Part shown: in pieces, positions 46,185-55,824 of the stretch
Layout of the letters: each line of letters begins with the position of its first letter
Position numbering within the stretch: the first letter of the stretch is position 1
DNA from: a phage
Length of the DNA: 64,000 nucleotides
Sequence record: NC_100371.1
Direction: 5' to 3' (one strand)
The notes under the pieces: model-generated
Databases searched by the model: none
The model's input: the letters and a program-made list of their open reading frames with translations, nothing else
Told to the model about the DNA's origin: nothing
Made by a program: the position numbers and the translations under genes

Positions 46185-46261
46185 TGGTCTCCACGGAGTG
46201 ATTCGAACACTCGACCTCCTGATCCCAAATCAGGCGCTCTACCAAGCTGAGCTACGCGGAG
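46185..46261 (-). tRNA. tRNA-Pro (anticodon UGG)
   Basis: Manual fold: acceptor CUCCGCG/CGUGGAG, anticodon arm CCUGA-UUUGGGA-UCAGG, T-arm GAGUG-UUCGAAU-CACUC, encoded CCA. Confidence 0.75.
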
Positions 46262-46272
46262 TATTTATTATT

Positions 46273-46347
46273 TGGTGGCCCTGGGTGGAATTGAACCACC
46301 GTCTGGCGATTATGAGTCGCTTGCTTGAACCTTCCAGCTACAGGGCC
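46273..46347 (-). tRNA. tRNA-Met (anticodon CAU; could be Ile-lysidine type)
   Basis: Manual fold: acceptor GGCCCUG/CAGGGCC, anticodon loop CUCAUAA, T-arm GGUGG-UUCAAUU-CCACC, CCA. Confidence 0.7.
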
Positions 46348-46348
46348 A

Positions 46349-46424
46349 TGGTGCTGATGGCAGGACTTGAACCTGCAACCTATTGATTACAAATCAATTG
46401 CACTGCCAATTGTGCTACATCAGC
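46349..46424 (-). tRNA. tRNA-Thr (anticodon UGU)
   Basis: Manual fold: acceptor GCUGAUG/CAUCAGC, anticodon arm AUUGA-UUUGUAA-UCAAU, T-loop UUCAAGU, CCA. Confidence 0.7.
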
Positions 46425-46430
46425 AAAAGG

Positions 46431-46527
46431 TGCTAGGTGATGGAATCGAACCATCTATGTATTCAACGACTACCTCGTCTATTTTCAGGATTAAAAATCC
46501 TCGCCCTTGCCAAAGGGCTTACCTAGC
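46431..46527 (-). tRNA. atypical tRNA-like gene (97 nt; Lys-like UUUUUAA loop; identity unresolved)
   Basis: Perfect 7-bp acceptor GCUAGGU/ACCUAGC, D-arm GCCC-UUUGGCAA-GGGC, T-arm GAUGG-UUCGAUU-CCAUC, but 46 nt between D- and T-arms; no encoded CCA. Confidence 0.4.
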
Positions 46528-46625
46528 TCAGCATGTTGACCATGTTGCTAGTCGGCGATGACGACTGTAACATTTGATAATCCGGTTCTGCTTCCGGCTT
46601 TCGCTTAATTACAAGGTCAACAATA

Positions 46626-46716
46626 TGGCAGAGGATAATGGAATCGAACCATCATCGAGTCATCCTCAACGGGACGGTTTTCAAGACCGCTTGAGCACCA
46701 TTGCTCCCTACCCTCT
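46626..46716 (-). tRNA. tRNA-Ser (anticodon UGA), class II
   Basis: Manual fold: acceptor AGAGGGU/AUCCUCU, anticodon arm GCGGU-CUUGAAA-ACCGU, long variable arm, T-loop UUCGAUU, CCA. Confidence 0.7.
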
Positions 46717-46830
46717 TTTATAAACAATACTGATAATGACACTGATTTTCGAGCAGTTAGTGACTAGTATAAACGACGATAAATATCAATGCCATTATCT
46801 GTATGATTTATGCATTTAAAAATATAAATT

Positions 46831-46918
46831 TGGTGGTGAGTGATGGAGTCGAACCACCCGAATCGCAATGATAACAGATTTACAGTCTGCCCCGCTACCC
46901 CTACGGAATTAACTCACC
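46831..46918 (-). tRNA. tRNA-Tyr (anticodon GUA), class II
   Basis: Manual fold: acceptor GGUGAGU/ACUCACC, anticodon arm GCAGA-CUGUAAA-UCUGU, long variable arm, T-loop UUCGACU, CCA. Confidence 0.7.
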
Positions 46919-47048
46919 TAAATACTAATATTTAAATTCTTTTTAAAATAGCTAGTGTTCTAACCACTAACTATGAGGTATCGGTAAAGTGGTTACCGCC
47001 ACTTGCCGAAGATTTACTCTGCTAAAGTAAGCTACATTAAAAAGAACT

Positions 47049-47123
47049 TGGCACCCCGTACTGGACTCGAACCAGTGTCAACGGCTTAGAAGGCCGCTGC
47101 TTTATCCACTAAGCTAACAGGGC
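47049..47123 (-). tRNA. tRNA-Arg (anticodon UCU)
   Basis: Manual fold: acceptor GCCCUGU/ACGGGGU (two G-U pairs), anticodon arm GCGGC-CUUCUAA-GCCGU, T-arm ACUGG-UUCGAGU-CCAGU, CCA. Confidence 0.65.
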
Positions 47124-50059: not shown

Positions 50060-50614
50060 TTACTCCCCGCTGTCAATAGCAAGACTCATTGCAATACGGT
50101 ATGCCTCTTCTAATGGTAAGAGTCTCCCCCACACATCCCAACCGACATCAAACTGCCTGCCAAACAACTGCTGTGTGGTTCCGTGAGCATGACCGAACAG
50201 TTGGACTGATCCGTGAGGCTTTCTGTTCCACTTTGCAAACTGGTAATGGCTCATACAGATCAAATTCTTGTTGTGGCGAAGCTCGTAATAATCTACAACC
50301 TCATGACCGAACTCTTTCATAATTCTGACAGTCGTCCTTGTGTCATGGTTACCACGAACAAGAATAATATGTCCGTTCAACATATTTAGAACATCTGGAA
50401 GCAATTTGTTGATATTCTTATCATTAGTGCACGCAATATCCCCCAAGTGAAACACAGTGTCTGCAGGTGACACAACAGAGTTCCACTTGGTGATGATTCC
50501 CGCATTCATACTGTCAAGATTGTGATCATACTGAGATCTGTGTTTTTGACATGAGTCGAACTCCATTACCCGCTGGTGGAGAAAGTGTGTGTCGCTTGTT
50601 ACAAAGTATTTCAT
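50060..50614 (-). CDS. calcineurin-like metallophosphoesterase (184 aa from ATG at 50614)
   Basis: Motifs SDTHF, GDI, GNHD, GHAHG; start with GAGGAA RBS; ORF-track start at 50719 would overlap the kinase. Confidence 0.6.
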   Translation of the reverse strand: MKYFVTSDTHFLHQRVMEFDSCQKHRSQYDHNLDSMNAGIITKWNSVVSPADTVFHLGDIACTNDKNINKLLPDVLNMLNGHIILVRGNHDTRTTVRIMKEFGHEVVDYYELRHNKNLICMSHYQFAKWNRKPHGSVQLFGHAHGTTQQLFGRQFDVGWDVWGRLLPLEEAYRIAMSLAIDSGE

Positions 50615-50621
50615 ACATTCC

Positions 50622-51032
50622 TCATTTAAGTTTAATGCAGTTTTTAAGCTGGCGTTCCATACGATCCACAACCCTGTCTGGAACATCATGAATGCTTTTA
50701 TTACCATGGCGGTTTTCAACCACGATCACGGTATAACTATATCCATGACTGATCGCCATGTCAATATATTCTTGCACATATTTTTCTTTTGTAAACGTAT
50801 TACTTACCACGATACGGTCGTAGCCCATACGCATCATATCTTCTACGTTATCTTTGCACCATTTTGCTGCAAGTGTTACTTTACTTGCATCCCAATTGTA
50901 ATTGCCGTCATCGTCGTACCAGAACATATCGTTCTCAAAATGTGGATACAGACCTTCTAAAGATAGCGCATTTGCCAGTGTTGATTTGCCAGACCCTGGT
51001 AGACCACGCACGATATATAGCATTTTAGACAT
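50622..51032 (-). CDS. P-loop polynucleotide-kinase-like kinase (137 aa from ATG at 51032)
   Basis: Walker A IVRGLPGSGKSTLA near N-terminus; GGAGAG RBS upstream of ATG at 51032. Confidence 0.5.
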   Translation of the reverse strand: MSKMLYIVRGLPGSGKSTLANALSLEGLYPHFENDMFWYDDDGNYNWDASKVTLAAKWCKDNVEDMMRMGYDRIVVSNTFTKEKYVQEYIDMAISHGYSYTVIVVENRHGNKSIHDVPDRVVDRMERQLKNCIKLK

Positions 51033-51150
51033 AGTAACTCTCCGTTTTAATTTTAATGATAGTATACCTAACTGTTTTGTTAATTTCAAGTGTTGACACC
51101 AGGTTATTTGTGTGGCAGAATAAAGGGACAAAATGACAAATGAGGAATGT

Positions 51151-52068
51151 ATGATGAAGTATTTTAATGCAGACGACCTGGTTGACAAAGGTCTTGTAAC
51201 CAGCAGATATTACCCAGATCTTGGATTAAAGATCTACAAATATGCCAGAAAAGTATTCTACAACAATTTATGGCATTTGTCTCCGCGTTTACTAGAGTGC
51301 CGAGGCATTGTTGTCGGTAATGAAGGAAATGTTGTGGCATGGCCCTTCACAAAAGTGTTTAATTTGGGAGAAAACTCCACCAACCTGCCTGACAATAAAC
51401 TTGTGACGGCGGTAGAGAAAAAGAACGGATTCCTTGGTGTGGTATCATCTCATAAAGGTGAACTATTGTTTTCAACAACCGGGTCTCTTGATTCTCCATA
51501 TTGTAACCTTGCAAAGGAAACCATCCAGGAGCAATGTGGTAATTTAGATCTTATCAAGAAGGTTATGGGCCATGAAAACATGACATTCATGTTTGAAATT
51601 TGTCACCCTTCAGATCCGCATATTGTTCAGGAAGATCATGGCGCATATTTGATAGGTTGCAGATATAATGATTCTGGAATAATGCTACCAGAAGCAGCTT
51701 TAGATGGGATTGCCAAATACCTTGGTGCAAAACGTCCTCACACTGTGCGTGAAATTCCGTTCAGCTATGCAAAAGAATTAGCTGCAGAAACAAGGGGTGA
51801 AGGGTATATGATCCGTAAGCCTTACTACCCTTATGACCTGCAACTAAAGATCAAGTCTCCCTACTATCTGGCACGGAAGGCCGTAATGAGGTGTAGAGCT
51901 TGGAAGATTTGGGATGATGATATCTTTAAACGTGTTGACGAAGAGTTTTACGGCATGGTAAACTTCATTCGTAGGAACTACACAGAAGATGTGTGGAATT
52001 GCCTCCTGGAGCAGGAACGCCGTGAGATACTTGACTGCTATTTCCACAACGAGGACTATATGCAATGA
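51151..52068 (+). CDS. RNA ligase-like nucleotidyltransferase
   Basis: Motif I-like VEKKNGFLG (KxNG as in Rnl1/tRNA-ligase type); GAGGAA RBS before ATG 51151; divergent from kinase/phosphatase pair. Confidence 0.5.
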   Translation: MMKYFNADDLVDKGLVTSRYYPDLGLKIYKYARKVFYNNLWHLSPRLLECRGIVVGNEGNVVAWPFTKVFNLGENSTNLPDNKLVTAVEKKNGFLGVVSSHKGELLFSTTGSLDSPYCNLAKETIQEQCGNLDLIKKVMGHENMTFMFEICHPSDPHIVQEDHGAYLIGCRYNDSGIMLPEAALDGIAKYLGAKRPHTVREIPFSYAKELAAETRGEGYMIRKPYYPYDLQLKIKSPYYLARKAVMRCRAWKIWDDDIFKRVDEEFYGMVNFIRRNYTEDVWNCLLEQERREILDCYFHNEDYMQ

Positions 52069-52415
52069 AGAAGTTGATTGTGTGGCTTGATGATTTTAGA
52101 GATCCGTCAGATTATGGACTACCAGACGCTCTGTGGCTGAAGAATTCTTCTGAGTTTATGGATTTTCTTAATGATAAGAGAAAGCTCTACAGACGCGTAT
52201 CTGAGTGGTATTTTGACAATGATCTAGGGGAAGTGCTTGAAGGGTACGACTGCTTCTCTGCGCTAGAGGAGAAACTTGTATTCGGAAAGCCACCACTTAT
52301 TGACAACGTGATTATTTTCGTGCATACTTCTAATCCATCGGCAGCTCGTAAATTTATGCTTGCTGCTGACTCATTCAAGAAGTTTGGAATAGAGATCAAA
52401 CAAAACATCTACTAA
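52065..52415 (+). CDS. hypothetical protein (116 aa), translationally coupled to RNA ligase
   Basis: ATGA start/stop overlap with RNA ligase gene; no motif recognised. Confidence 0.35.
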   Translation: MKKLIVWLDDFRDPSDYGLPDALWLKNSSEFMDFLNDKRKLYRRVSEWYFDNDLGEVLEGYDCFSALEEKLVFGKPPLIDNVIIFVHTSNPSAARKFMLAADSFKKFGIEIKQNIY

Positions 52416-52423
52416 GGACATTT

Positions 52424-53185
52424 ATGCGACGACTTATTGTTATTTCTGGTGCTGGCTTGAGCGCAGAATCTGGGATCCCAACTTTTCGTTCTGGTCAAAC
52501 TGCAATGTGGGAGAATTTCAGCATCGATGAGGTGTGTAACATCCACACCTTTGCCAAGAACTACTATAAGGTGCATGACTTTTACAATGCACGGCGTGTA
52601 GCTCTGGGCAGTGTTGATCCTAACCTTGCACATCTCCGGATCGCTGAGTGGTATTCACGTTGGTCTGGTCGTGTGATCAACCTGACAACCAATGTAGATG
52701 ATTTGCTGGAGCGTGCTGGTGTTAAACATGAAGATATCTTACATGTCCACGGGTATTTGCCTGAAATCACCTACGAAGATGCTGAAGGTAATGATGTAAT
52801 TAAAAATATCGGATACACGGAGGTAGATACAGGCAAGTATACTTGGGTTAAGCCCAATGTGGTGTTCTTCGGTGAGGTTGCTCCTAAGTATACAGACATG
52901 TATGACCTATTGACATCTCTTACCAGCAATGATATGGTGATCCTGGTGGGTTGTTCTAACACAGTTATTAATTTTAACTGGGAATTGTTTCCTGCTACTT
53001 GTAAAGGCACAAAACTACTGATTGTAAACAAGTATGATTCGCAGAGTGCAGATGGAAGCGGCATTTCACGTAGCGACCTTTATCAATATGAGGATCGCGG
53101 GATCCCGGTTTGGTTTAACGGGGCGGTTGATGCTTTCTCTGATAAAACATTCATTGAGACCGTAGAAAACTTTATGGAACTTTAA
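52424..53185 (+). CDS. Sir2 (sirtuin-fold) family protein lacking zinc-ribbon cysteines
   Basis: Motifs GAGLSAESGIPTFR, NLTTNVDDL, catalytic-type HG (LHVHGYL), VGCSNT; no CxxC pairs where the sirtuin Zn module would be. Confidence 0.6.
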   Translation: MRRLIVISGAGLSAESGIPTFRSGQTAMWENFSIDEVCNIHTFAKNYYKVHDFYNARRVALGSVDPNLAHLRIAEWYSRWSGRVINLTTNVDDLLERAGVKHEDILHVHGYLPEITYEDAEGNDVIKNIGYTEVDTGKYTWVKPNVVFFGEVAPKYTDMYDLLTSLTSNDMVILVGCSNTVINFNWELFPATCKGTKLLIVNKYDSQSADGSGISRSDLYQYEDRGIPVWFNGAVDAFSDKTFIETVENFMEL

Positions 53186-53198
53186 AAGGAGACCTTTA

Positions 53199-53912
53199 AT
53201 GCTGAATACCAAATTAATTGACAACCTGGAAAAACTGTCCCAGCCTGAAAACTACCTTTGGTCTGCCAACTGGGTGGAAAACTGGAACCGTGTAGCAGCT
53301 AAAGTGAAAAAATCATACACACCATTCGAACTTCAGCTGAGTTTCATTGAGGAAGAGTTCAATGAGGTTTTGGAAGAGTTGGAGAAAGGTGATGGTGGGG
53401 ATCATCTCCTAAAAGAGGCCTGCGATCTTCATGTTGTCACAAGTTATGCCGCTTATCTTGTTAACGATAACCATGAAAAGTGGTCAAACCTGTTTGATAA
53501 TCCGCGAGGTCTTAAGTTTAAGATCGGTGAATTTTATGATACACTGATCGCTGCGAAAAATACCTCTAAGCAAAGAGCGTCTGCTTACCGCTTAGCAGAG
53601 TTGTCAACAGCTTTGCTGTTCCAGCTTCGCGGTGATGTGTGCGGGATGATGCGGAAGGTTCTAAAATCTAATGACAGCAAGTTTGCACGCGTCAACCATC
53701 TGCGGTATTCACACGGTGCCAGTGCAGATATGCCTGCTGAACAACTCATCGAGTTGGAGATTAAAGATCTTGAGCGACGCTTTGATGGTCGCTATGAAGG
53801 TTTTGTTGCTAAAGAAGAATTCTACAACGGAAATAAAGTTATCATATTCCTTGACAGTAAAGGTAAGATTATGAAGCCTTCAAGCTTCAAAGATGTAACA
53901 GAATATATTTAA
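53199..53912 (+). CDS. MazG-like nucleotide pyrophosphohydrolase domain protein (237 aa)
   Basis: N-terminal EEEFNEVLEELEKGD...EACD matches the MazG/HisE E-x2-E...E-x2-D pattern; C-terminal half unassigned. Confidence 0.4.
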   Translation: MLNTKLIDNLEKLSQPENYLWSANWVENWNRVAAKVKKSYTPFELQLSFIEEEFNEVLEELEKGDGGDHLLKEACDLHVVTSYAAYLVNDNHEKWSNLFDNPRGLKFKIGEFYDTLIAAKNTSKQRASAYRLAELSTALLFQLRGDVCGMMRKVLKSNDSKFARVNHLRYSHGASADMPAEQLIELEIKDLERRFDGRYEGFVAKEEFYNGNKVIIFLDSKGKIMKPSSFKDVTEYI

Positions 53913-53918
53913 TAACAT

Positions 53919-53947
53919 AGCCGGGGCGATCCCGGCTTTACTTGTTT
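53919..53947 (+). terminator. intrinsic terminator (plus strand)
   Basis: AGCCGGG-GCGAU-CCCGGCU hairpin followed by UUACUUGUUU, 7 nt after stop of 53199..53912. Confidence 0.6.
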
Positions 53948-53976
53948 CGGAAAGTATGCAAGTGAGGTAGAAAGTT

Positions 53977-54285: not shown

Positions 54286-54541
54286 TCTTGCTAAACCTGT
54301 AGAAGCACACCAGTTTGACGGAAGCTCTTCATCAGTATCTGATCTGCAACGGTGGATTGATACAGGTGTGTTTACACCGTCACCTGTTCGGACCAGAGAT
54401 ATTCTTCGCATGTGTGAGCTTGTCGAGCCGTTTGGTAACCTGGTCTTGTACCAAGGGGATTGGTTAGTTGACTTTATGGGAGACTGGTTGGTAATTAGCA
54501 AAGAAGAGATGTTTAAAATTTTTAAGGAAGAGGCTGAGTAA
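54272..54541 (+). CDS. hypothetical protein (89 aa)
   Basis: ORF with overlapping start/stop with neighbours. Confidence 0.3.
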   Translation: MQLFNLAKPVEAHQFDGSSSSVSDLQRWIDTGVFTPSPVRTRDILRMCELVEPFGNLVLYQGDWLVDFMGDWLVISKEEMFKIFKEEAE

Positions 54542-55824
54542 TGCATCAGATCAAAACAACACTGTACGCACTGAACAAAGATGGCAGCTACCAACAGTGG
54601 AAAGTATTCACGGATGGTGATAAGGTTATCGTAGAGTTTGGCAAGCTTGATGGTAAACTGCAATACAAAGAGACGATCTGCACACCTAAGAACGTGGGTC
54701 GTGCCAATGAAACTACAGCTGAGCAACAGGCTGAGCTGGAAGCGATCAGTAAGTGGGAAAAACAAGTCCGTCTGGGGTATGTTGAAAATATGGAAGATTG
54801 CGAGCAGGGTGTTGACCTTTTACCCATGTTGGTGCATGACTACCTGAAGCGTGGAAAGGCACTTAAATTACCTTGCTGGATTTTGCGTAAGTTAGATGGC
54901 CTTCGTCTACTGGTTGTTTTCCAAAACGGTGAGCCTAAATTTATTTCCCGTGGTAATAAGTCCTACCCTATTCAAGGAAAGCTTCTGGAGCAACTTCGTT
55001 CTTTCCACTTCACCACCGGGATTAAACAGCTCGACGGAGAGATCTATATTCATGGTCTGCCTCTGCAGAAAATAGTGTCTCTTGCTAAACGGTGGCGCAC
55101 ACAGGAAGAGATTCAGGCCGAGATCGATAAAGACTACGAGGCAGATAAAAAACGCCGTCATGCCGCAATTAAGGCAGGCTTATCAACATACAAAAACTTC
55201 AATAAGGTAGATATTCCTGTTGATGTTGAGCCTGTTCGTGATGATTTGCGTTACGGAGGGTACTGTAGCTATGACTTAGAGTATCATATTTTCGACATCC
55301 CTAGTGACAAGGTATGGTGGGATCCAGAAACAGAATCTGGACGATGCAAGGATCTTATGGATGCAGAAGATACCATTACCACCCTGATGCTTGACCATAT
55401 CAAGGTTGTTGACGCAGAGCTTGCGTACACAGTTGATCATTGCGAAGAATCTGTTGGTGTATTCATGTCCGAAGGATATGAAGGTACTATCATGCGTAAC
55501 TTCTGTGGTAAATATGAATATGGTCAGCGAACATCTGAAGCATTGAAATGGAAAAAGTTCAACGATGCTGAGGTGAAAGTTATTGACGTTGAGAAAGATA
55601 AGAATGATGAAGGTGTTCTTATCTGCGTTGACAAGGAAGGTATCGTTGTTAAAATGAAGATGAAAGGCACGCACGAGGAGCGTAGCTATGACAGGATGCA
55701 GGAAATGATCGGCAAGTTTATCACCTTCAAATATCAAGCAAGGACAGAAGACAACAACTACCAATTCCCTGTCGGCATCTGCGTCCGAAATGTTAACCCT
55801 GACACTTGGGAGGTTCTGGAATGA
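54541..55824 (+). CDS. ATP-dependent DNA ligase
   Basis: Motif I KLDGLR (KxDGxR) at about residue 118; size compatible with phage ATP ligases. Confidence 0.55.
   Translation: MHQIKTTLYALNKDGSYQQWKVFTDGDKVIVEFGKLDGKLQYKETICTPKNVGRANETTAEQQAELEAISKWEKQVRLGYVENMEDCEQGVDLLPMLVHDYLKRGKALKLPCWILRKLDGLRLLVVFQNGEPKFISRGNKSYPIQGKLLEQLRSFHFTTGIKQLDGEIYIHGLPLQKIVSLAKRWRTQEEIQAEIDKDYEADKKRRHAAIKAGLSTYKNFNKVDIPVDVEPVRDDLRYGGYCSYDLEYHIFDIPSDKVWWDPETESGRCKDLMDAEDTITTLMLDHIKVVDAELAYTVDHCEESVGVFMSEGYEGTIMRNFCGKYEYGQRTSEALKWKKFNDAEVKVIDVEKDKNDEGVLICVDKEGIVVKMKMKGTHEERSYDRMQEMIGKFITFKYQARTEDNNYQFPVGICVRNVNPDTWEVLE

Follow-up and report, generated by a model that had tools for sequence, protein, structure and literature searches.

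Which function should be attributed to a small phage gene that is lodged between an RNA ligase and a sirtuin? The question is raised by a 116-aa open reading frame (ORF) at positions 52065-52415 of a 64,000-nucleotide stretch of phage DNA (sequence record NC_100371.1), the whole of which is referred to here as the window. The original prediction, made from the letters of this DNA, had described the ORF as unassigned, devoid of any recognisable motif and possibly a partner or specificity subunit of the module. The first part of this description is wrong, since the protein clearly belongs to PF20274 (cREC_REC, 'Cyclic-phosphate processing Receiver domain'; hereafter cREC), and the second is not the best reading. 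With modest confidence, we consider cREC to be probably an enzyme of the phage tRNA heal-and-seal pathway, namely a small phosphoesterase, as suggested by the polar, catalytic-looking residues at the C-terminal ends of its strands 1, 3 and 4.

The match to PF20274 reaches 52.1 bits (cut-off 27; E 1.1e-13) over profile positions 2-83 of 88; it is the only Pfam family reported for the protein, the canonical receiver family PF00072 giving no match at E<=0.1. The protein also matches PHROG 1479 (function not assigned), and the name 'Cyclic-phosphate processing Receiver domain-containing protein' is already used by UniRef for several close homologues and by GenBank for one Salmonella-phage record, whilst NCBIfam holds no model for the protein and PADLOC none for it or for its neighbours. 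When compared with the family as a whole, the window protein has the same motifs, size, phage habitat and neighbourhood, with no essential difference. Homologues at E<=1e-3 number 55 in a set of 5.8 billion proteins (54 of them precomputed as PF20274), and a profile search of 1.84 billion cluster representatives returns 1479 representatives at the same threshold, mostly stand-alone proteins of 100-125 aa. PF20274 alone was found in the ten longer members inspected for domain fusions. A set of very large proteins (P0076, P0078, P0103, P0121, P0182 and P0193; 1163-3483 aa) was discarded, as these match profile positions 56-100 only, 5-12 times each; P0076, the sole one inspected, consists of 'SVASDGTQ…FVHD' repeat units, and the set looks like composition or motif artefacts.

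The family has been known for some years. It was defined by Iyer, Anantharaman, Krishnan, Burroughs and Aravind in 2021 as a divergent form of receiver that never occurs with histidine kinases and is linked to enzymes of NAD+ and ADP-ribose (ADPr) as well as to several RNA-ligase families, and that was posited to be a phosphoesterase acting on cyclic ADPr or on 2',3'-cyclic nucleotides (PMC7824862). In section 3.7.3 of their 2022 paper, Iyer et al. name the neighbourhood of phage V5 (sirtuin, T4-like tRNA ligase, cREC, kinase, MazG and calcineurin-like phosphoesterase), predict that cREC opens RNA 2',3'-cyclic phosphates or processes ADPr 1''-2'' cyclic phosphate (ADPr>P), propose that the sirtuin is KptA-like and removes 2'-phosphates, report Nudix-cREC fusions and state that cREC is experimentally uncharacterised (PMC9503650). 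Gene family, fold and V5 neighbourhood are thus already known as computational predictions, down to the prototype phage; what the present survey adds is the residue-level conservation, the missing lysine and helix 5, the context of two ligase families and the facultative nature of the sirtuin link.

The window indeed lies close to V5. Positions 50600-53950 match 121 phage records, nearly all of them rV5-like Vequintavirus coliphages, with 95% identity to V5 itself, in whose RefSeq record the ORF is gp079 (ORF 83, 'hypothetical protein'; 99% identical to the window cREC), flanked by gp078 (RNA ligase 1) and gp080 (Sir2), and with gp077 (ATPase) and gp076 (phosphoesterase) transcribed divergently. 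The ORF is a real gene under strong purifying selection, the ratio of non-synonymous to synonymous change (dN/dS) being 0.04 against V5 (6 synonymous and 1 non-synonymous difference) and 0.07 against an 89%-identical relative. For the notion of a chance or decaying frame from which no functional protein is expressed nothing was found beyond the label 'hypothetical protein' in most records; these dN/dS values, homologues in 359 phage records, a confident fold and a Pfam match above threshold all contradict it, and it is effectively refuted already by the conservation data.

Structure prediction, which had been named as a check on the original prediction, yields a confident receiver-like Rossmannoid fold: the AlphaFold2 model, built with 32 homologues, has a predicted local distance difference test score (pLDDT) of 92 and a predicted template modelling score (pTM) of 0.85, and a Foldseek comparison with viral models returns further phage cREC proteins. 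Strands are modelled at residues 4-8, 23-25, 45-51, 82-88 and 109-115, the last helices at 91-98 and 101-105, and no helix follows strand 5. A comparison of 120 diverse family members shows no variation at D9, D10 and D51 and a conservation of at least 93% for R12, P14, D53, L54, G55, E68, H87 and N90, whilst position 52 admits only H or N (N52 in the window protein) and position 88 only T or S (T88 here); G60 and P91 are also among the conserved residues of the window cREC, which carries every one of the family motifs, namely [WFY]-L-D-D-x-R-x-P, D-[HN]-D-L-G and H-[TS]-x-N-P. In the model, strand 1 is followed by D9 and D10, strand 3 has D51 as its last residue, with D53 at the second position beyond it, and strand 4 closes with H87-T88, so that these residues would take the places of the acidic pair, the phospho-acceptor Asp and the Thr/Ser of receivers.

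The protein has no counterpart of the fifth receiver residue, the lysine after strand 5: its chain stops at Y116, as soon as this strand is complete, K112 is not conserved, and K96 lies in helix 4 and is K or R in only 68% of members. Many members of the family stop after helix 4, before strand 5, and the Pfam model itself has just 88 positions, so that strand 109-115, which ends in a conserved Tyr, is an extra C-terminal element of V5-type proteins found neither in this model nor in many of the shorter members. Because the receiver lysine and helix 5 are missing, the protein is filed as cREC and not as a canonical receiver. When compared with canonical receivers such as CheY and Spo0F (PF00072), it shares the DD, D and T/S by position, but it lacks the conserved Lys and helix 5, adds a conserved Asp at D+2 as well as a His and an Asn around the Thr, and is encoded by a phage gene without a histidine kinase in its operon; its predicted role is that of an enzyme, as opposed to a signalling switch. 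Scans of neighbouring genes in related loci, and of the part of the 64-kb window covered with Pfam, showed no histidine kinase, and cREC is not part of any two-component signalling system.

Two further observations concern the motifs. In relatives from Firmicutes metagenome-assembled genomes (MAGs; L021 1114-1416, L025 2957-3259, L028 and L029 1186-1476), the motif D-[HN]-D-L-G is replaced by D-Y-E-L-G and the motif H-[TS]-x-N-P by H-S-T-H, and these relatives may form a divergent subgroup with a changed pocket; those of L021 and L025 adjoin an alpha/beta hydrolase. A comparison of the cREC profile with PDB chains gave matches only to acyl carrier proteins (E 0.07-1.7) through a shared 'F-x-N-D-L-G' string, which were dismissed as chance.

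How might such a protein act? In the scheme considered here, whose catalysis, substrate and order of steps are inferred, whilst gene, family, fold, conserved residues, operon and neighbourhoods are established, host anticodon nucleases leave 2',3'-cyclic-phosphate and 5'-OH ends on cut tRNA; phosphorylation of the 5' end would fall to the stand-alone kinase and the opening and removal of the cyclic, 2' or 3' phosphate to cREC together with the calcineurin-like phosphoesterase, after which the Rnl1 ligase would seal the break. Asp51, the last residue of strand 3, would attack the phosphate in a receiver- or HAD-like chemistry, with Asp53 (D+2), His87 and Asn90 (T+2) contributing leaving-group protonation and water positioning. 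The sirtuin may add an NAD+-dependent, KptA/Tpt1-like removal of 2'-phosphates, and the opening of the ADPr>P by-product may be an additional or an alternative task of cREC. Canonical receivers depend on Mg2+ for their chemistry. Asp9 and Asp10 would likewise hold Mg2+ in cREC, a proposal that differs from the metal-independent site described by the family's authors (PMC9503650). Although the enzyme idea was already published as a prediction in 2021-2022, its demonstration would be new, as would the particular D51/D53/H87/N90 mechanism put forward here.

The D-x-D pair, in combination with the conserved His and Asn, suggests a hydrolytic aspartyl-phosphate chemistry like that of HAD phosphatases. 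Aspartyl-phosphate chemistry is also the mechanism of the T4 Pnkp phosphatase. With HAD-type RNA-end phosphatases (the T4 Pnkp domain and the 'Swiss-army-knife' HAD_SAK_2, PF18143), cREC has in common a D-x-D pair suited to this chemistry, and it lies beside a polynucleotide-kinase-like gene and an Rnl1 ligase. However, the D-x-D of cREC (residues 51-53) follows strand 3, whereas the HAD signature (DxDxT) follows strand 1, and cREC has no cap, no motifs II-IV and no HAD Pfam match, so that the proposed likeness is one of functional analogy only. The same pocket might instead make cREC a sponge, binding and holding a phosphorylated or cyclic nucleotide signal without turnover, like known phage anti-defence sponges, and the small size of the protein, its abundance in phages, its conserved ligand-type pocket and its link to NAD-related genes would agree with this. 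Nevertheless, we regard a sponge as very improbable, given that the grouping of D-x-D, His and Asn is reminiscent of hydrolytic sites, that the operon context is one of RNA repair and that no known sponge fold is similar; the missing PADLOC match carries no information on this point, PADLOC being made of models of host defence systems that would not show a sponge anyway.

The arrangement of the gene within its operon bears directly on its role. Re-reading of the sequence confirmed both the ORF and its overlap with the ligase gene, in which the ligase TGA (52066-52068) and the cREC ATG (52065-52067) are fused as ATGA (context TATATGCAATGAAG), with a GAGGA 9 nt 5' of the ATG. The claim that the Sir2-like gene starts 9 nt past the cREC stop also holds when counted from the last stop base, the TAA ending at 52415 and the ATG being at 52424, with a spacer of 8 nt; AAGGA, a Shine-Dalgarno-like sequence, straddles the cREC stop ahead of Sir2. 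A predicted promoter and a hairpin, both consensus matches only, bracket the four genes for ligase, cREC, Sir2 and MazG. The ATGA overlap with the ligase is also kept in L003 and L004, which belong to a second phage clade with a 61-64% identical cREC, and the GGAG after the cREC stop serves the following gene, whichever gene that is. The cREC gene is tightly packed with those for the RNA ligase and the Sir2-like protein, and its expression together with both enzymes, as already put forward originally, is almost certain; it also belongs functionally to their module.

Beyond the window, the neighbourhoods of cREC were surveyed in viral contigs, found with the closer cREC alignment, and in genome contigs, found with a hand-made degenerate DNA pattern whose 16 matches included 3 false or truncated ones and left 13 cellular or MAG loci. 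The V5-like order is Metallophos and kinase on one strand and, divergently, Rnl1, cREC, Sir2 and MazG on the other, whilst in the second clade, made up of Klebsiella, Raoultella and Cronobacter phages, a Metallophos gene is followed at some distance by Rnl1, cREC, kinase, Sir2 and DNA ligase; Rnl1, kinase and Metallophos accompany cREC in V5-like, Klebsiella-phage and phi92-like genomes. In L009, L011, L012 and L013, cREC is followed by one gene and then by Metallophos, with no sirtuin within 6 kb, L011 and L012 also carrying Rnl1 and kinase and L009 and L013 being without them. In Proteus phage Privateer (L038, 488-4339), which has no nearby sirtuin, cREC (gp099) lies 2.5 kb downstream of an RtcB-type tRNA ligase, with a 415-aa ATPase and a band-7 protein likewise upstream of it. 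The cREC gene of Streptomyces phage Coruscant has a tRNA cluster on one side and an RNA ligase on the other. Recognisable neighbours at the 13 cellular or MAG loci are three Metallophos genes, from two loci (one in a Burkholderiales MAG, one in a Nitrosotalea MAG), one NUDIX gene (L027) and one integrase, the remainder being unrelated. The most persistent companions of cREC are two families of RNA ligase and the calcineurin-like phosphoesterase, Metallophos being the most persistent single neighbour across the surveyed loci.

The link to the sirtuin, on the other hand, is real but facultative. In phapecoctavirus Ro121lw the two genes are 32 kb apart, and T5-like phages encode the same sirtuin clade (46-58% identity) without cREC, with a HAD_SAK_2 RNA-repair phosphatase two genes downstream. 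HAD_SAK_2 in the place of cREC beside the same sirtuin is the most suggestive single observation of the survey, in that, by analogy, it suggests interchangeable partners and a function of the aspartyl-phosphatase type.

These data bear on the possibility that cREC is a non-catalytic partner or pseudo-receiver that regulates or targets the ligase or the sirtuin, for instance by serving a CobB-like deacylase as its CheY-like substrate or adaptor. Translational coupling, leading to roughly equimolar synthesis with the ligase, would suit such a role, as would a small single-domain protein, the loss of the receiver lysine and helix 5, and the deacetylation of CheY reported for E. coli CobB in a reference listed in PMC9503650. 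Yet the family-wide invariance falls on acidic, His and Asn residues at catalytic-pocket positions and not on a surface patch, the partners differ (Rnl1, RtcB, Metallophos, Nudix) or are not recognisable at all, and the sirtuin (1022 phage-collection records) and Rnl1 relatives (764) occur widely without cREC (359). Conservation of the pocket residues together with the varying partners makes a non-catalytic subunit less likely, to the point that we consider it quite improbable. The idea of a partner or specificity subunit fits poorly, moreover, with cREC genes that have no sirtuin nearby (L009, L011-L013, Privateer with its RtcB, and some MAG loci), as well as with the T5-like sirtuins that have no cREC; an independent enzyme of the same pathway fits better than an obligate subunit.

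The main rival to RNA-end healing is a different one, namely that cREC is an enzyme of NAD+ or ADPr small molecules that does not act on RNA, either opening the ADPr>P made by the sirtuin or destroying host NAD-derived immune signals. This was the original proposal of Iyer et al. 2021 (PMC7824862) and it can draw on a considerable list of neighbours: the sirtuin adjoining cREC here and in the Klebsiella-phage clade, the NAMPT and Prs-like genes 2-4 kb upstream of cREC in L011 and L013, the NUDIX gene of L027, the MazG gene and the fragment of an NAD-dependent DNA ligase that adjoin cREC in L016, and the published Nudix-cREC fusions (PMC9503650). Nonetheless, the tightest and most conserved coupling of cREC is to the RNA ligase and not to the sirtuin, from which it is separated by 32 kb in the phapecoctavirus and which is missing near the RtcB-associated cREC of Privateer, whilst the T5-like phages have the sirtuin without cREC; we consequently deem a pure small-molecule enzyme unlikely. 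As a separate observation, the Prs-like and NAMPT-like genes form a pair beside Rnl1, kinase or Metallophos genes in several unrelated phage families (L011 1247-3945, L013 1365-4301, L036 from phage K8 4822-7648 and L037 from phage Pontus 5983-7900), and the 64-kb window has no homologue of either gene. This pair presumably resembles the NARP1 NAD+-reconstitution pathway.

Known routes for the same substrates offer a further comparison. The 2H phosphoesterases need two H-x-[T/S]-x motifs in a duplicated fold, whereas cREC has a single H87-T88 dyad, another fold and no Pfam 2H match. The 2H and KptA/Tpt1 route nevertheless has the same proposed substrates (RNA 2',3'>P and ADPr>P) and the same logic of an NAD+ enzyme plus a cyclic phosphodiesterase (PMC9503650). 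In contrast to this route, the folds are unrelated, the NAD+ enzyme is here a zinc-less CobB-like sirtuin and not a KptA of the ADP-ribosyltransferase (ART) fold, and the roles are predicted ones. Taken to its furthest consequence, cREC might be the first true enzyme with a receiver fold, an aspartyl-phosphate phosphoesterase acting on damaged RNA ends (2',3'-cyclic, 2'-phosphate or even ADP-ribosylated) that forms with the zinc-less sirtuin a KptA/Tpt1-independent, NAD+-dependent branch of tRNA repair by which rV5-like phages escape host anticodon nucleases; this wider proposal is a tentative one that we put forward with some doubt.

Several observations weigh against RNA-end healing by cREC and have to be set beside those that favour it. 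The mapping of residues to the receiver pocket rests on secondary-structure position and not on superposition, and hhalign of the family profile against E. coli CheY gave no alignment (probability 0.3%). Pakpunavirus K8 and Vibrio phage Pontus carry Metallophos, Rnl1, kinase, the Prs-like gene and NAMPT without cREC, and the occurrence of Rnl1, kinase and Metallophos without it implies that cREC is dispensable for basic heal-and-seal. Most of the 13 sampled cellular or MAG loci have no RNA-repair neighbour, and the phage loci that share context are related to each other and are thus not independent observations. Finally, a search of one literature collection for bench work on cREC or phage sirtuins turned up only the comparative papers PMC7824862 and PMC9503650.

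Features of the window in and around the cREC operon, with the basis of each assignment.
Feature	Position	Strand	Basis or remark
cREC protein (PF20274), 116 aa, = rV5 gp079	52065-52415	+	Shortened CheY-like receiver fold
T4 Rnl1-type ATP-dependent RNA ligase, 311 aa	51133-52068	+	Pfam RNA_lig_T4_1 E 8e-15, PHROG 562; V5 annotation RNA ligase 1
CobB/SIRT5-like sirtuin, 253 aa	52424-53185	+	Pfam SIR2 E 5e-28
MazG-like nucleotide pyrophosphohydrolase, 237 aa, final operon gene	53199-53912	+	PHROG 671 E 5e-22; weak Pfam PRA-PH; V5 annotation
Sigma-70-like promoter match, TTGACA-17-CAGAAT with TG, 12 nt 5' of ligase ATG	51093-51121	+	Consensus match only
Terminator-like GC-rich hairpin followed by a T-run, directly 3' of MazG-like stop	53919-53937	+	Consensus match only
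Stand-alone P-loop kinase, 136 aa from V5's ATG, candidate 5'-OH polynucleotide kinase, divergent	50622-51032	-	Pfam AAA_33 E 1e-9, Zeta_toxin 3e-5; V5 gp077
Calcineurin-like metallophosphoesterase (Metallophos), 184 aa	50060-50614	-	Pfam Metallophos/Metallophos_2; PDB 1xm7 E 7e-11
Phage tRNA cluster, 5 kb upstream: Pro, Met, Thr, odd 99-nt tRNA-like gene, Ser, Tyr, Arg	46185-47123	-	

As regards the other members of the module, the best PDB sequence match of the sirtuin is E. coli CobB (1S5P), SIRT5 also being near, and by sequence it stands closer to these two than to the defence-type SIR2 NADases: it keeps the GAGxS…GIPxFR (NAD-binding) and HG (catalytic His) motifs, has no CxxC...CxxC zinc-ribbon cysteines and finds no convincing match among the PADLOC defence models. 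The kinase is an AAA_33/Zeta-type P-loop protein without a phosphatase domain, annotated as polynucleotide kinase in BASEL phages, and the Metallophos protein is similar to Aquifex aq_1665 (1xm7), with a weak likeness to YfcE/PdeM-type phosphodiesterases as well.

Three further observations concern the window and its relatives. The 99-nt tRNA-like gene (46429-46527, - strand), between tRNA-Thr and tRNA-Ser, is reported by ARAGORN as 'tRNA-???' with a 4-base anticodon, scores 37.5 bits with the Rfam tRNA model (gathering threshold 29) and folds (-34.8 kcal/mol, z -4.0) into a cloverleaf in which the extra arm is long; its anticodon loop, read as UUUUUAA, would give the anticodon UUU (Lys), and the gene is kept in V5, which is unannotated there, with one pair-preserving change in the T-stem. 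The ATP-dependent DNA ligase of the window (54541-55824) is 56% identical to that of V5 (L001 9941-11206) between flanks of 93-100% identity, the ligase of L002 being 92% identical, which suggests allele replacement or mosaicism. Lastly, about 20 GenBank 'Campylobacter phage' records (MG0656xx; host C. jejuni) are 87-99% identical to rV5-like or related coliphages across the module, and their host or organism labels look doubtful.

As the result of a genome scan, the gene carries little weight, since family, fold and the exact V5 neighbourhood had already been described. Its value is that of a well-defined experimental target: the protein is widespread (1479 representative clusters, 359 phage records), its function is predicted, and it sits in a compact module of six genes, for kinase, metallophosphoesterase, Rnl1, cREC, sirtuin and MazG, that could be rebuilt in vitro. 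Demonstrating the roles of cREC and the sirtuin would settle whether receiver folds can act as phosphoesterases and whether phages possess an NAD+-dependent route of RNA repair distinct from KptA/Tpt1, two questions that both bear on the resistance of phages to tRNA-cleaving defence systems.

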